A stretch of 64,000 nucleotides of DNA. It comes from Eledone cirrhosa (Eukaryota). The DNA is taken from assembly GCA_964016885.1 (NCBI GenBank), contig OZ024750.1:50840001-50904000 (forward strand), given 5' to 3'. Shown in pieces: positions 4,268 to 53,077 of this stretch (its first letter is position 1; each line of letters starts with the position of its first letter). The notes under the pieces are model-generated. The model was not told the origin of the DNA. It ran no database searches and saw only the letters and a program-made list of their open reading frames with translations. Both the position numbers and the translations under genes were made by a program.

Positions 4268-5145
<878 letters not shown>

Positions 5146-5425: not shown

Positions 5426-5892
5426 TGGATAAACTGGATAAAATCAGAAAAATTGAAGTATTTATATTAGTAAAAGAGGAAGGAACAGAGGGGATAGAAT
5501 ATGACAGATGGTAAAATAATTTACTGCTAAACAAGTATATAATGGGTTTTTAATGAGAATACCATGAGTAAATCTAAATAAGAATTTTGGGGGTGCCGAT
5601 TTTAATCTCTACTTGACCAACTGGACAGTGGACAGGGCTGGTCATTTGGTGCAGTAGTATTAATCATAAAGTGTCAATTGGGGAAGGGGGAGATTTCGAT
5701 TGCTACTAAATAACATCAATGCTAGTGGTCAGCTGGTATTTGCTCTAGGGAATTGAATCAAAAAATCAGAAATCTCATTTTATCTATAGCAGTTTGTATT
5801 AAAAGGTAAATAATAGAAGAGTTGATAGAATTAAGACTAATAAAGAATGTTCATATCTATTTTGACAATCAAACGGGGATAGAGACAGGTGT

Positions 5893-7083
5893 TCAATCCT
5901 GGTAGTATTTATAATATGAAAATGTAGATTTTAAGCGATGGTTACAGTATAACGATCGCTCTATTCTGTTATTTAATAAAATGTTTTTGGATTTCATAAT
6001 ACAAAATAATTCTACATTACATAATCTACAAAATTCCTGTCCATTGGAATATGGGGGGGCAGTCGCTATTATATCCCATTTTAGGTGAAATTGTTGGTTA
6101 TTTTCACGCAGCTGCCAAGCCTTGTCTGCGAGTGTTGTTACATAACGCTGGTTTTCATGTTTTATCGAATAACGATGTCTATAAAGGCGTGATTTAAAGG
6201 AGGTGGCTGTAGATCCCACATAGTACCACTTCTGTCTATCCGATTCGATAGTACATTTGTATACGATGTTGCGTTCAAGACACTGGTTGTTCAACGGACA
6301 CATTCCTGGTTGGACACAGTTGTAATTACAATTTTGCGTTGTTGTATTGCCATGGATGGGTTGATGAGGTTGCTTATGTAGAACAGGATGTTGTTTGTTG
6401 TTTTGTGATGTTATAGCTAATGTTTTACGTGTATTGTTATGTCTTGGAAGGCGTTTATACAACCGTTTTGCGTTAAGCATTTTTATATGTTGTTCAATAT
6501 TAGGGGCGGTTGAATATGAAAGTCGGATGGTGTTAGGGTTTAAGATTTTATTATATTTATGTGATGTTGGAAAGTGTTTTCTAACTAATCGAAAGAATTT
6601 TGAGGGTAGATTGGTTTTAATAGATTTGTTATAGACCGGGTTGTACCAGATATACTCCTTACATCGCCTTCTGTTTGGTGGTGTGCGACTATTATTGTGT
6701 CTATTGCGGTAGTGTATGTATGGTGGTGATTCTGTGCTATTTCTACTCCTATGTGATTTATTTTGGGTGTTTTGGTGATCATTGACTATATACTCTATAT
6801 TATCTAGGTGACCGGCTTTCCTAAGTGCATCATCATAATACTCGGCATGTTCTTTGAAGGTTTGTTGGTTGGACGATAGGCGGGAGATTCTAAGAGAAAC
6901 ATTTCTAGGGATGGATTTAATTATAGAGAGTGGATGGTTAGAACTCGTATTTACATATTTAAGGTTCACATTTAGTTTATGGAACGGTTTAATCGTATCT
7001 GTATTGAGATTGAAAGTAACATCAAGGAAATTGACCTCTTTGAGGTTATATTCAAATGTAAGCTTGTGTTTGTAAACAAACAT
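5893..7083 (-). pseudogene. 5'-truncated PLE ORF: RT C-terminus/thumb, linker and GIY-YIG endonuclease
   Basis: VNFLDVTFNL, YVNTSSNHP, IWYNPVYN, CPLNNQCLERNIVYKCTI..YYVGST..RLYRH, CRLCNVEL. The RT catalytic core is missing. Confidence 0.9.
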
Positions 7084-7397
7084 TCCGTATTAAACCGTAG
7101 TGTCTAGCAACCATCGCTGCTCGTTTGTTCAACACTGACAAAGGAACGCTGTACTAGTTTCAAGCTTATTAGCTATCGTCAGCAACGTATACCTTCCTGC
7201 CAGATTGTTGAACGTATATACTTACCTTATGCATATTAATATATATTACCTTATGCATATATATATGTGTGCATGCATGTATATATATATACATACTACT
7301 GTACGTCTGTATACATATATGTATATAGGTGTACATACTTATATTTAAGTAACAGCCGTACTAAGAGTGGGAAATGAAATTAAGTTTCATTTCTTCC

Positions 7398-7400
<3 letters not shown>
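7065..7400 (-). mobile_element. Short non-coding repeat carrying a minimal hammerhead (other copies at 50690-51120 and partially 43310-43520)
   Basis: Similarity among three copies, flanked by (TA)n. Confidence 0.7.
7146..7188 (-). ncRNA. Minimal type I hammerhead ribozyme
   Basis: ACGTTG-CTGACGA-tAGCT aata AGCTt-GAAA-CTAG-TA-CAGCGT: 6-bp stem I, 4-bp stem II, palindrome ACTAGT, GUA site. Confidence 0.85.
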
Positions 7401-7476
<76 letters not shown>

Positions 7477-7674
7477 ATATATATATATATATATATAATG
7501 GTGGGGTTTTAAATAAAAGCGTAGATGAAACATTCAAGCATTAACTGTATATTTTTTTCTATAAATGTAAGTAGTAAAACTTATTGAAGAGAAAAGTAGC
7601 AATGGCTTCTTAATTCCAGCTATTCCTTCATCAGGCAGCCATATAAGGCAGTAATTGCAATTTTGAGAGTTTTT

Positions 7675-8755
<1,081 letters not shown>

Positions 8756-26951: not shown

Positions 26952-27027
<76 letters not shown>

Positions 27028-27118
27028 CGAATGAAAAGTGGTAAGGAACCAGGTGGACCATAACGCACCAAAGTACTCAATACTTAGGGTAGTAGAGTGG
27101 GTAATAGGAGTAAGTAAG

Positions 27119-27217
27119 ACCCCGACGGCTGAGCTCAAGCCGTTTCGACGGCTAATTAATTCTGTACTGAATGAAAAATCAGTTCTGGTATTTAAATAGC
27201 CGAACTTGTCAAGGGGC
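27119..27217 (-). ncRNA. Type I hammerhead, U3:A8 core variant
   Basis: GCCCC-TTGACAA-gttCGGCTA...TAGCCGtc-GAAA-CGGCT tgagctc AGCCG-TC-GGGGT. Confidence 0.75.
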
Positions 27218-28964: not shown

Positions 28965-29059
28965 GCCCCTTGACAAGTTCGGCTATTTAAATACCAGAAC
29001 TAATTTTTCATTCAGTACAGAATTAGCCGTCGAAACGGCTTGAGCTCAGCCGTCGGGGT
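28965..29059 (+). ncRNA. Type I hammerhead, U3:A8 core variant (inverted pLTR copy)
   Basis: TTGACAA at 28970-28976, GAAA at 29032, GUC at 29052-29054. All three stems pair. Confidence 0.75.
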
Positions 29060-29090
29060 CTTACTTACTCCTATATATATATATATATAT

Positions 29091-30036
29091 ATATAAATGA
29101 AAGGTATAGAAAATATTGTAGCAAAAAGCCAACAGTATTCCATAATATATAATGACTATAGCGTCAAAATGGGAAAAATAGTTAATATAAGATGTGGGGA
29201 GAATAATTCAAACTCAACTCAAAAAGAATCAGGATATATATATTCATCCAACAGAATTTATTGAAATCCAGGGAAAAATCAATAGAGCCTTAACTCATGA
29301 TAAAATAAAGTTTAAAATACTCATCCTTCAATTTGGAAAAAACTTAAAATGCTCTGTATAGTCTTGAAGACTATTTCACGAAAATTTTCAATGGAGATGG
29401 TCACGGTTGGAATTCGATCCTCAGCAGAGCTCAACTCGATAACCAAAGTTTCAACTGATTAATATGCCAAAAAGGGAATTAAAAGCAGGCTAGTTCACCA
29501 TCATGCGTGATTATGAAAAATAAAACGCACATGTGGAAAGACAGGGCTGGTGACGTCAGAATGAGACGAATGTTTGTTTACAAGAAATAACAGTCAAAAA
29601 CATTCCGAAAAAAAACCTCTACAATAAGGAGTTCAGCAAAAAGCAATATTATCGCGGTTTTTTTATTAAAAAAATACCGGGATTAGTCACAAATAATTTA
29701 AGCACTATAGGAAAGGAATCCGAGAATAAATATATAAATGAAAGGTATAGAAAATATTGTAGCAAAGAGCCAACAGTATTCCATAATATATAATGACTAT
29801 AGCATCAAAATGGGAAAAATAGTTAATATAAGATGTGGGGAAATAATTCAAACTCAACTCAAAAAGAATCAGAATATAGATTTATCCAACAGAATTTAGT
29901 GAAATCCAGGGAAAAATCAATAGAGCCTTAACTCATGATAAAATAAAGTTTAAAATACTCATCCTTCAATTTGGAAAACACTTCAAATGCTCTGTATAGT
30001 CTTGAAGACTATTTCACGAAAACTTTCAGTGGAGAT
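29091..30036 (-). mobile_element. Non-coding partial-tandem element (640-bp period, ~307-bp direct repeats) with a hammerhead; retrozyme-like or non-autonomous PLE
   Basis: 29091-29398 is repeated at 29731-30036. No ORF. (TA)n on both sides. Confidence 0.7.
29351..29430 (-). ncRNA. Type I hammerhead with a stable stem III
   Basis: GCTCTG-CTGAGGA-tCGAA...TTCGt-GAAA-TAGTCT tca AGACTA-TA-CAGAGC. Confidence 0.85.
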
Positions 30037-37904: not shown

Positions 37905-37956
37905 TGCGCGTGTGTGTGTGTGCCTGCGTGTGTGTGTATGTGTGTGTATATATATA

Positions 37957-38832
37957 GGAAAATGTTTAACCTCGACCGACGGCAGAGCTCAAGCCGTTTC
38001 GACGGCTATTTCTGAACTAAATTAGAATTTTTAGCGTGGTAAATAGCCGAACTTTTCAAGGGGTAATTCCTTATATGGGAAGATTGTAGTTGTCAAAAGG
38101 ATTGGTCAAAATTTATTGTAAACACAATTAAATCTTTCATGGTGGTGGGTGGGTGGTAGGATGGCTGAACTTGCCTCGAGAACAATGAGGGAGTGGGTGG
38201 AGCCGGTCAAGCGTTGAAAGTGAGTTATATACAACAAATTCTAAGGAGTGTATATGAAATTAGGCTAGGTAGAAAGCAGGCGAAAAAGAAATTAAAAGGT
38301 TAATAAATTGAGATTAAAAGAAAAAAATAATTTGAAAAAATTAAATAGTAGAAAATAATAAAAAATCTCTCGAGTCTAAAGCAGCTGCTATATTTTTAGC
38401 TGGTATTGCGTTTTCGGCCAATACTATATATAATTTACTGGGGTGGGTGACTGAGGCTACAAAAGTCCGATGGGCTGCCTCAGGGTAGGCGAAAGAGGAG
38501 AAAGGAAAAGGAAGAGGAGAGGGAGTGGAAGGAAGTGATTAGAAGAGAGAAAAGGAAAAAGAAAAGAAGTACATCTACCTATGTATGCTGGGGTTTCCCC
38601 TATTTTGTTCGGCAAGTGGGTAAAAGAGGGATGTTGCAGCCATTGTCTACCCACCCTGGTCATGAGGGGGTTTGAGGGCGAGGTAAGTGCTACGCAATCG
38701 GTGTTTACATGCAGTTACATGTTCGTCTTTTTGTTTAGGAGGTGACCCTTCGTAAACAGCATTTGTATTTTTTCCTCCGAACATAAGTTATACGGACGGC
38801 GTCCTCCCGTATAGGAGTTAGCCCTCAGGAGT
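37957..38832 (-). mobile_element. 3' fragment of a PLE related to 27027-29072, with a U3:A8 hammerhead at 37976-38063
   Basis: 38660-38830 is similar to 28590-28770. Core reads TTGAAAA with the same stems II and III. Confidence 0.8.
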
Positions 38833-42859: not shown

Positions 42860-43306
<447 letters not shown>

Positions 43307-43756
43307 AATGGAAAAAATGAAACGAAATTTCATTTCATTTCTCACTCTTAATACGGCTGTTACTTAATTATAAATATGTATACGTACATACATATATGTA
43401 TACAGATGTACAGTAGTATGTATATATATATATATACATACATGCACACATATATATATGTACGTATGGGTTTACCGAGCATTTATTATAATGCTCGGTG
43501 TGTTTGTAAACAAACATCCCGAATTATACACACACGCTCTCATATATATACAGTATATATATATATATATACTGTATATATATATGAGAGTGTGTGTGTA
43601 TATATGTGTGGATCTAAGTATATGTGCGTATGTAAATATATGCACTGATGTGCGTACGTGCGTTGTTGTGTATGTGTGTATGTATGGATATAAACGTGTC
43701 TGTGAGCGTCTCTAAATCTATGCCTGCCTGTCCCTGTCTATCAAATTTCTATATCT

Positions 43757-50379: not shown

Positions 50380-50597
50380 CTCTTAAGCCAGAAGGCTCAT
50401 TTGGCCGGTGCTTATCCCGGTTTCATGGTGTGAAGCGACTGAGAGTACAATAATCCCCCTAGACAGGACGCCAGTCCATCGCAGGGTTAAACCTCCAGCT
50501 TTTGCTGGTACTCATTTTCAGCTGAGTAAACTCGAGCAACGTGAAATGAAGTGTTTTGCTCAAGAACACAACACACAACCCAGGAATCGAACCCACG
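50380..50597 (-). mobile_element. Second tRNA-derived SINE family (fragments also near 52390-52460 and 59290-59430)
   Basis: Minus strand GGTTCGATTCC B-box followed by GTGTTGTGTTCTTGAGCAAAACACTT. Confidence 0.7.
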
Positions 50598-50818
50598 ACA
50601 TTATGTCTGTATACATATATGTATGTACGTATACATACTTATATTTAAGTATCAGCCGTACTAAGAGTGAGAAATGAAATTTCATTTTTTCCATTTAACG
50701 TTTTCGGTACGCCCGGCCGACTAACTCACCCGATATGCAAATTAGGCTGCTCAGCCGTTAATATGAATAAGGAAAGTATATACTTTCAAACGTTCAATCG
50801 ACTAACAGGAAGGTATAC

Positions 50819-50857: not shown

Positions 50858-51140
50858 ATTCCTTTGTCAGTGTTGAAGAAAAAAGCAACGATGGTTGCCG
50901 AACACTGTACGGCTTAATTCGGGCTGTTTGTTTACAAACAAACCGAACATTATAATGAATGTTAGGTAAACCCATACGTACATATATATATATGTGTGCA
51001 TGTATTTATGTATATACATACTACTGTACATCTGTATACATATGTGTATGTACGTATACATACATATATTTAAGTAACAGCCGTACTAAGAGTGAGAATT
51101 GAAATATCATTTTTTCCATTTATATATATATATATATATA

Positions 51141-51417
51141 ATATAAGATCAAAAGATGGTTAAAGGAGTTCCATATATTTTATTATGCGCATTTCAAAAA
51201 CAAACATCATCATGCAATAATATTTGTGTTTTCATCAGATAAAACATATGATATGTTGATTTAAAACTGCACTATCCACAAGTGCTTTCCAGCCCTCATA
51301 TCATGCTCTCCTGTTTTATCCGACGAAAACACAAATATTATTGCATGATGATGTTTGTTTTTGAAATGCGCACAACAAAATACATGGAACTCCCTTAACC
51401 ATCCTTTGATCCTATAT

Positions 51418-51463
<46 letters not shown>

Positions 51464-52163
51464 ACGTCAAGATGTATATATATATGCATGTACATCTACA
51501 AATTCATACAAATGTGTATGTGTGCATAAATATATATATACATACACATATATATATATACAGACACATATATATATACACACAAACACATATATATACA
51601 CACAAACATATATACACAACAAATTCACAATCGTAAAACTGTCAAAAATTAGTTTCACTTTTGAGACCGCCCGTCTTGACGTATGCCTATATATATATAT
51701 ATATATGTAGGAGGTGAGTTTTATTGTAGTACAATAAAGCAATGCAGATATCGGATAAGAAGCACTCTACAGTTTGTGGGACTGGAGTATGCATAATATA
51801 AGATAAAAAGATGGCCAAAGGAGCTCCATATACTTTACTATGCGCATCTCAAAAACAAACATCATCAAGCAATAATATTTGTGTTTTCGTCGGATAAAAC
51901 AGGAGAGCATGATATGAGGGCTAGAAAGCACTTGTGGATAGTGCAGTTTTAAATCAACATATCATATGTTTTATCTGATGAAAACACAAATATTATTGCA
52001 TGATGATGTTTGTTTTTGAAATGCGCATAATAAAATATATGGAACTCCTTTAACCATCTTTTGATCTTATATTATGCATACTCCAGTCCCACAAACTGTA
52101 GAGTGCTTCTTATCCGATATCTGCATTGCTTTATTGTACTACAATAAAACTCACCTCCTACAT
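51141..52163. mobile_element. Nested palindrome: two oppositely oriented foldback units (51141-51417, 51706-52163) with four hammerhead copies
   Basis: Intact copies at 51176-51246 (-) and 51967-52037 (+): TGTTTTAT-CTGATGA-stem II-GAAA-TGCGCA-TA-ATAAAATA. The inner copies are mutated. Confidence 0.85.
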
Positions 52164-52186
52164 ATATATATATATATATATATATA

Positions 52187-52372
52187 TAGGAACAAGTGAG
52201 ACCCCGACGGCTGAGCTCAAGCCGTTTCGACGGCTGATTCTGAATTAGCCGTCGAAACGGCTTGAGCTCAGCCGTCGGGGTCTTACTTGTTCCTATTACC
52301 CACTCTACTACCCTAAGTATTGAGTACTTTGGTGCGTTATGGTCCACCTTGTTCCTTACCACTTTTCCTTCG
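52187..52372 (+). repeat. Solo foldback of the 3' part of the U3:A8-family pLTR
   Basis: 52187-52240 is inverted against 52242-52295; the remainder matches the reverse complement of 27027-27110. Confidence 0.8.
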
Positions 52373-53077
52373 TTATATATATATAGTAATTGTGAGTTCG
52401 ATTCCTGGACCAGGCGATGCGTTATGTCCTTGAGCAAGACACTTTATTTCACGTTGCTCCTTCTACCTGAAGTTGCGACCGATAGATAGTATTAGCAATT
52501 GGAAAGACCAACGGAAACATTGTTTCCTCGGTCCGATTTGACGAAAAGCGATCGCCTTTAAAAATATGTATGTAAGAATATTCTCGAAACAGCGAGATAT
52601 ACATATATGTGTATGCGTATACGTATATACAAAGTATCTGTCAGACGAAGAGCGTCTAGCTATGTATCTATGTAAGGACCTTGACGCCACCAATACATCC
52701 ACCACATAACCACAAACGCCGCGATCATAGACAACGGCACCACTACCACACCCCCACACACACGCCAACCCGTCTACTGACAATCCACTAACCTCATACC
52801 ACAGCCCATCCCACTAAATAACCATAACCATCACCATATCATCACATCCACCCCCACATACTCTACACGCCAAGGCCAACCCACCACCACCACACCACAG
52901 CCCATCCCATCCACCGACCGTCACCAGCATCTCACCATCACACCCACCCCATATACACTACAGGCCAGTACATCGCCTTGATCCTTCCCACCAATCAAAA
53001 CAACTCATTTTGTCAAACCCTTGAAACTCTGACTTTACCACATAGCATGTATTTCATTTTCTTATAGCATTTTAAGC

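Follow-up and report, generated by a model that had tools for sequence, protein, structure and literature searches.

The window analyzed here is a 64,000-nucleotide (nt) stretch of the Eledone cirrhosa genome (3.0 Gb; assembly GCA_964016885.1, contig OZ024750.1, here C10, positions 50,840,001 to 50,904,000 of the forward strand). Between 51141 and 52162 (window numbering, used throughout) it contains a nested palindrome with four 106-nt arms, A to D. This structure is very probably a single terminal-repeat insertion of a Penelope-like element (PLE) whose template RNA had undergone ADAR hyper-editing before being reverse transcribed, A-to-I thereby being fixed as A-to-G. Nineteen distinct changes were found, every one of them A>G on the minus strand. 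An earlier note on this DNA had proposed that a hairpin transcript of the minus strand was hyper-edited by ADAR and then retrotransposed; this proposal is supported by the strand coherence of the changes, their confinement to paired parts, the avoidance of a 5' G (nine loci pooled), their recurrence elsewhere and one unedited parent locus.

Structure of the insertion

51141..51246, minus: arm A, terminal-repeat (pLTR) arm reading in element sense on minus and lacking a tail; forms the unedited end of the main copy
51247..51311, plus: spacer M1, pLTR part upstream of the hammerhead-like motif; 5 T>C (51285, 51289, 51290, 51295, 51306)
51312..51417, plus: arm B, T>C at 7 sites compared with the sister locus (51321, 51324, 51373, 51376, 51394, 51404, 51412)
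51418..51458, no strand: (TA)n run, single T>C (51428)
51459..51687, no strand: passenger of 229 nt resembling a miniature inverted-repeat transposable element (MITE), carrying terminal inverted repeats of 14 nt; differs from the C2 sister at one site, which is not T>C
51688..51705, no strand: (TA)n run
51706..51795, minus: tail E, optional 90-nt extension of subfamily type, unedited; predicted to lie outside the long duplex
51796..51868, minus: arm C, left part, a subfamily arm; minus-strand A>G at 6 sites (51815, 51816, 51824, 51833, 51838, 51848) and one C>A (51805)
51869..51888: putative in-register junction of the main copy (minus sense) with the inverted copy (plus sense), placed by change polarity and the switch of subfamily letters
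51889..51966, plus: right end of arm C and spacer M2; 6 A>G on plus mirroring 6 T>C of B and M1
51967..52072, plus: arm D, unedited; hammerhead-like motif at 51969-52035
52073..52162, plus: tail F, exact reverse complement of E; insertion end, followed by (TA)n

Arms A and D are reverse complements with 0/106 differences, as stated before. Arm B differs from D at 8 sites, T>C at every one, and arm C differs from A at 10 sites, namely 6 T>C, 2 A>G and 2 transversions; the 2 A>G (51889 and 51892) fall on core sites also altered in B (51324 and 51321). The two 65-nt spacers M1 and M2 are mutually reverse-complementary bar one site, and the 90-nt tails E and F are identical. Both ends of the insertion are canonical, the left one being an arm without tail and the right one an arm with tail.

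Judged by their layout, the four arms are the pLTR ends of a Penelope-like retrotransposon. A 26-nt core has 12,029 exact matches in the genome, many of them in inverted pairs 0.1-5 kb apart, and long inverted pairs enclose open reading frames (ORFs) of 775 and 821 aa. These carry YRDDG and endonuclease-like YFGST..RLYNH motifs, which may be signs of the Penelope-type reverse transcriptase (RT) and GIY-YIG endonuclease that full PLE copies encode in a single ORF. A Pfam scan of the PLE ORFs returned 0 families, likewise 0 for 2 homologs; 25 homologs were found at 31-42%, one of them from Argonauta hians, and 15 carry a precomputed PF26215. Sampled copies consist of an inverted, variably 5'-truncated pLTR copy with an optional tail at either end, and a (TA)n microsatellite lies on both sides of the window insertion and of the other copies viewed. 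Known PLEs with inverted pLTRs (PMC8557442, PMC3846280, PMC11167929, PMC4209133; statements on cited papers refer throughout to the parts available) have in common with this family 5'-truncated inverted copies, microsatellite targets, capture of passengers, an optional tail from two RT start sites and a palindromic helix III motif. In contrast, the tail is about 90 nt here and 30-40 nt in known PLEs, and the template here carries editing marks.

The hammerhead-like motif at 51969-52035 consists of a 6-bp helix I, CUGAUGA, helix II, GAAA, a palindromic UGCGCA (helix III) and UA; it was read by eye and compares with the palindromic helix III motif of PMC4209133. Rfam gave no match at gathering threshold over the window, and at E≤10 all 82 matches in 51100-52400 were below gathering, with no hammerhead among them. 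The minimum free energy fold of the motif yields helix II only. The earlier note had described the inner hammerhead cores as destroyed: the altered core CCGACGA is indeed present in the window, but "hammerhead" remains a motif recognized by eye.

Two other classifications were rejected. The whole palindrome is not a MITE, its ends matching PLE copies with ORFs. A non-LTR (long terminal repeat) retrozyme is defined by head-to-tail tandem hammerhead monomers (bioRxiv 10.64898/2026.07.22.740005); such tandems were not found here, the copies being inverted and the long ones carrying an ORF.

Private A>G changes in the window

The subfamily background was established with 122 arms sampled from 83 loci. 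Most of these arms carry zero private changes, and six columns are subfamily variants. All eight T>C previously listed for arm B and the counts given for arm C were seen again; however, the C at 51383 is the commonest family letter (92/122 arms) and the transversion at 51868 is a subfamily variant (25/120 arms), and because these are family or subfamily letters they need no editing.

The middle 246 nt of the insertion have an approximately 100% match at one other locus, on C2. This sister (C2:304678943-304679621) has the identical MITE and foldback junction and is unedited. Compared with it, the region 51247-51458 (spacer, arm B and TA run) shows 13 substitutions, T>C without exception; the previous list was thus incomplete by 5 T>C in M1 and by 51428 in the TA run. 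Arm C adds 6 further T>C, and 6 of these 13 changes reappear as mirrored A>G in right C and M2, among them 4 of the 5 in M1 (at 51907, 51918, 51924 and 51928 in M2). The 6 mirrored changes are likely older than the inversion.

With expected values taken from the family background (20 per 7,884 T), 12 T>C on 70 T sites compare with 0.18 expected (Poisson P ~2e-18), and 6 changes on 22 sites of left C with 0.05 expected (P ~1e-11). The genome has 3 copies of the CCGACGA core, 2 of them inside the window, as against 12,029 intact cores. M1 and M2 are the sole genome matches to the spacer edit pattern with ≤3 mismatches allowed, and no sibling sharing the edits of the window was found among the 40 candidates scored per similarity search with edited queries. 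Backward CpG decay from an ancestral C was ruled out, T being the majority letter of the family.

One-class clusters at other loci

Mismatch searches gave 43 and 123 matches, 100 of the 123 being listed; they missed heavily edited copies, which were recovered by degenerate motifs. Many matches with multiple changes proved to be older subfamilies and were excluded, and old-subfamily columns were skipped for C3:162.26. A motif forcing 87A>G with the other A free had 44 matches, of which 10 (the window included) carry at least two further A>G, 2 carry one and 32 none; at least four further A>G are present in 6/44. A motif forcing 84T>C had 34 matches, 4 of them clustered, and 3 of the 4 are partner arms of loci found with the 87A>G motif. 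This search, intended as a null, thus proved to be the partner strand, and a G>A search took its place: forcing 52G>A (G>A/C>T, with subfamily column 42 set aside) gave 60 matches, of which 10 had a single further change and 0 had two.

One-class clusters were tallied at 8 loci other than the window; two weaker 87A>G-motif loci (C10:16.38 and C28:98.17) were left out of this tally. The changes are 47 T>C at C1:284.01, 30 T>C at C2:22.68, 57 T>C at C2:239.48, 7 T>C at C2:149.11, 12 T>C at C18:9.46, 26 A>G at C3:162.26, 29 A>G at C1:120.06, and 19 T>C plus 11 mirrored A>G at C6:77.06, with 0-6 changes of other classes at each. At C6:77.06, 9 arm A>G are mirrored in both arms, and 8 of 10 spacer A>G have no inverted partner in the locus; it has sites 54, 64, 86 and 87 in common with arm C of the window. 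Arm positions 54, 64, 78, 86 and 87 are hot spots of change. Tails without a partner are unchanged at C1:284.01, C2:22.68, C2:239.48 and C2:149.11, and at C1:120.06, where two tails pair, they are changed within the paired part.

Over the nine loci pooled, the changed fraction depends on the 5' neighbour: U 83/112 (0.74), A 122/198 (0.62), C 25/98 (0.26) and G 11/59 (0.19). The ADAR neighbour preference that had been anticipated is thus seen as a depletion of 5' G (11/59 versus 230/408 changed, p 4.4e-8), a p-value that is indicative, the loci having been selected as edited and sites recurring between loci, so that they are not fully independent. The same route of editing and copying appears to recur genome-wide, in at least about 1 in 1,000 arms as a rough lower bound. 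An APOBEC-edited retroelement was considered and rejected; the clustered changes are not the G>A on the sense strand that would mark one.

Some neighbouring observations concern these loci. The copies L201, L190 and L169 show 3-5 A>G each in the sense direction, several of them in mirror image in both arms, and are likely lightly edited. Two long ORFs of long interspersed nuclear elements (LINEs; endonuclease, RT, PHD finger) at L290:677-3793 and 5598-8723 (minus) flank the C2:22.68 foldback on the edited strand. At L305:5949-8351 (minus; C2 ~239.476 Mb), a few kb from the C2:239.48 tract, an 801-aa ORF encodes 5 cadherin domains, the first of protocadherin type.

A probable unedited parent on C3 and its edited copy on C1

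The foldback junction motif of C1:284.01 has two genome matches, C1:284011768 and C3:318629767. Alignment of C3:318628276-318630336 with C1:284011223-284013289 (2,071 columns) showed 184 substitutions, 159 of them T>C; of the 25 others, 11 fall into the final bin, in which the alignment runs past the junction. In the C1 copy, 56/88 T were changed in the foldback and 1/98 in the unpaired LINE stretch. Inverted partners of the changed LINE pieces, with 93-97% likeness, lie beyond the copied block at C3:318632804-318633103. Near the C1 copy the sole long partner is 79% alike, lies ~12 kb off and spans changed and unchanged parts equally. The best reading is that the 2-kb C1 block is an edited copy of the unedited C3 paralog, with changes that track inverted partners present beside C3 only.

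At 3/5 one-strand foldback loci the edited tract lies directly 5' of an unclassified 640-nt element, here element Z, on the sense strand of Z; among overlapping 3-kb comparison loci not selected for clusters, Z was found near 8/153. Its 3' end is fixed and its 5' start variable, and it matched neither PLE nor LINE proteins. The copies are:

window 4462-4876, plus: element Z
L291:5218-5842: element Z
L293:3191-3784: element Z
L301:370-955: element Z

Element Z was not found within 20 kb around the C3 parent. Since Z stands beside edited copies and is missing around the parent, a template jump in (UA)n may be assumed. In the (TA)n runs 3' of Z, TG prevails over CA in 8/8 runs (125 versus 1); runs upstream of Z also look TATG-rich, and the run downstream of the window copy also has TACG units. 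The TG-rich runs by Z may represent (UA)n that was edited and copied back into DNA. After PLE tails, TA runs showed no strand bias (27 with more TG, 27 with more CA, 33 ties; n=87).

A model for the window insertion

Arms and tails A, D, E and F belong to another subfamily than C2, and this mosaic requires an earlier transposition step. Change polarity and subfamily letters both flip between 51868 and 51889. From both, we infer that a long minus-sense copy and a short inverted one of plus sense, made from one template, were joined here in register, and such joined inverted copies would explain the mirrored changes. The "two rounds" suggested by the earlier note would accordingly be modified: the 6 common changes are likely one edit set copied twice and do not require a second round of editing, but an earlier round of transposition is needed.

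Folding of minus 51141-51966, used as a proxy for a source RNA with an upstream sense spacer, predicted pairing of M1 with M2 over 64/65 nt and of B with C over 104/106, with A and E unpaired. Without the sense spacer, B was predicted to pair with A, and the whole present structure was predicted to form A-B, C-D and E-F pairs, which do not match the positions of the changes. Among the folds tried, the proxy with the spacer upstream is the only one agreeing with these positions.

The following sequence of events may be envisaged. The source locus would have consisted of spacer, arm and tail of one subfamily, (TA)n, the MITE, (TA)n and an older foldback (reverse-complemented arm, reverse-complemented spacer, arm). 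In its transcript, spacer plus arm would pair with the reverse-complemented arm plus spacer over ~170 bp, with the last arm and the tail unpaired, and ADAR would edit both sides of this duplex. The PLE RT would then make a long copy (A, M1, B, MITE, E and left C) as well as a short one in inverted orientation (F, D, M2 and the right end of C) from the same RNA or a sibling, the two being joined within arm C, in register, at a (TA)n target.

Sequencing support and rival explanations

Four runs were compared for the variant bases; comparison at 90% likeness was swamped by family depth. In run X1 a 308-nt contig of depth 3.56, matching at 90% likeness, begins at 51785, which is 30 nt ahead of the first site that is changed, and carries T>C at 51831, 51836 and 51839. 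C2:239.48 is the only fetched locus with these three changes together and agreement at 51833-51835 and 51838. The amount of contig sequence in X1 (1.4 billion letters) suggests whole-genome DNA, possibly from the sample of the assembly itself. T>C-rich arm contigs were also present in X4, another sample of a type not on record, and are not interpretable.

Several observations weigh against an ADAR-edited, reverse-transcribed template. The variant-only bins 51286-51307, 51374-51417 and 51814-51835 had no exact contig or read cover in 4/4 runs (X1, X2, X3, X21), although contigs drop rare variants, so that uncovered bins are no evidence of absence. The X1 contig has 10 differences, as compared to 11 for C2:239.48, and its library type is not on record. 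The C2 sister differs from the window in the last arm and tail, and the direct source locus is not in the assembly. The MITE is unchanged with 178/229 nt predicted to pair, and 51290 is altered in M1 and unaltered in M2. Avoidance of a 5' G is not significant in the window by itself (0/6 versus 16/51, p 0.17). Furthermore, a 3' neighbour preference is absent from the pooled loci (0.48-0.55), and PMC5625713 gives a downstream A for invertebrates. Regarding the C1/C3 pair, a more distant partner of the parent (89% alike) spans an unchanged stretch, 62/159 T>C lie in a TA run of uncertain register and the alignment also shows 11 C>T.

An artefact, either base-calling error in the second arm of inverted duplicates or a consensus overwritten by RNA-derived reads, has some points in its favour: the inner arms are second arms in both read directions, Nanopore accuracy drops past inverted-duplicate junctions (PMC7229812, the available part of which names no substitution class), and the variant words of the window were not found in X1, X2, X3 and X21, the assembly platform not being on record. 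Against it, private changes are missing from most of the 122 sampled arms, and the inner arms of other double foldbacks (L004, L082, L207) are free of such clusters. Moreover, C1:284.01, C2:22.68 and C2:239.48 are changed in both arms on one strand, the first-read arm included, and 8 changes at C6:77.06 have no local partner. The C1 block is a separate locus with its own junctions, its pattern follows pairing at the C3 parent, and an X1 contig carries a hyper-edited arm. Long-read error in foldbacks, which the earlier note had named as its alternative, is hence disfavoured, although the window's own variant bases have no independent read; we regard an artefact of either kind as improbable.

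Real changes may also have arisen during reverse transcription, by an error-prone PLE or LINE RT or by deamination of the DNA strand in an RNA:DNA hybrid. This would fit altered bases on one strand of retrotransposed pieces, and ADAR can deaminate dA in model heteroduplexes (PMC12925331). Both processes should ignore RNA-RNA pairing, but the changes end at unpaired tails and unpaired LINE stretches, and a 5' G is avoided; this explanation appears slightly less probable still. Least probable of all is a change in place, with an edited transcript of the same locus as repair template or with arm-to-arm conversion of a few ordinary mutations. The missing direct source locus would agree with it, and conversion between M1/B and M2/C could explain the 6 common changes. 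However, a transcript of the present structure would pair A-B and C-D and predict changes in A and D, both of which are clean; the C1/C3 pair represents copying to a new chromosome, and conversion yields no one-class spectrum. Editing of the template RNA by ADAR before its reverse transcription is thus strongly preferred for the window.

Precedent and significance

The cephalopod lineage is known for extreme RNA editing. Hyper-editing of palindromic repeats is known from RNA, and depletion of G upstream of the edited A is the common ADAR motif (PMC5625713). The clusters in metazoan repeat RNA described there likewise lie in self-pairing repeats with upstream G depleted; there, RNA reads were compared with an unedited genome, whereas here the marks stand in DNA and lack the downstream-A preference. 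ADAR-type A-to-G hypermutation of Rous-associated virus as well as avian leukosis virus (PMC12925331) likewise gives dense A-to-G in inverted-repeat RNA that is reverse transcribed. In contrast to these retroviruses, a cellular, non-viral retroelement is concerned here, in an assembled chromosome and at many loci, flanked by host sequence and with a parent locus that is unedited. LTR retrotransposons that were edited by APOBEC and are fixed in genomes of vertebrates (PMC4866542, PMC2873906) also show strand-biased one-class hypermutation in genomic copies; the present changes differ in being A>G rather than G>A, RNA-level and pairing-dependent. The APOBEC screen covered LTR elements and selected G-to-A, with 19 invertebrate genomes at noise level (PMC4866542, PMC2873906). 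In the literature covered, which leaves out most subscription journals, we found no report of ADAR edits fixed in the genome, whether in cellular retroelements or in cephalopods. ADAR-edited retroviral sequence is therefore the precedent, and the case of a cellular retroelement appears new, no paper on it having been found.

We lean, with little more than even confidence, towards the wider view that germline RNA hyper-editing has repeatedly been written into heritable DNA by Penelope and other RTs, with edited foldbacks, passenger DNA and (UA)n fixed as A>G. RNA editing is usually regarded as leaving the genome untouched. If the wider view is true, a datable fossil record of ADAR activity would exist, and mutation would lead directly from (TA)n to TATG/(TG)n microsatellites. 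Parent-copy pairs (C3:318.63/C1:284.01) would be single-molecule snapshots of ADAR activity in cells contributing to the germline. Such pairs would make ADAR activity in the cephalopod germline testable, as well as the disabling of retroelements by editing, with hammerhead cores and GAAA motifs hit. Common edits, marking common templates, could be used to examine how PLE makes its inverted copy, and editing as an input to microsatellite evolution is likewise testable. A>G clusters in assemblies can also confuse RNA-editing calls.

Other features of the window

The MITE-like passenger at 51459-51687 is a member of a large family marked by terminal inverted repeats of 14 nt; the 40 candidates scored gave 187 matches. 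A second foldback of a different repeat family, 52186-52296, adjoins the insertion and has related pieces at 27015-27157, 29018-29099 and 37947-38019. A direct repeat, 90% alike (50595-50697 and 51020-51122), is the end of another repeat family also found at 7239-7426 and 43281-43526. At 5920-7065 (minus) lies the remnant of a related PLE ORF with 33% identity to the family protein.
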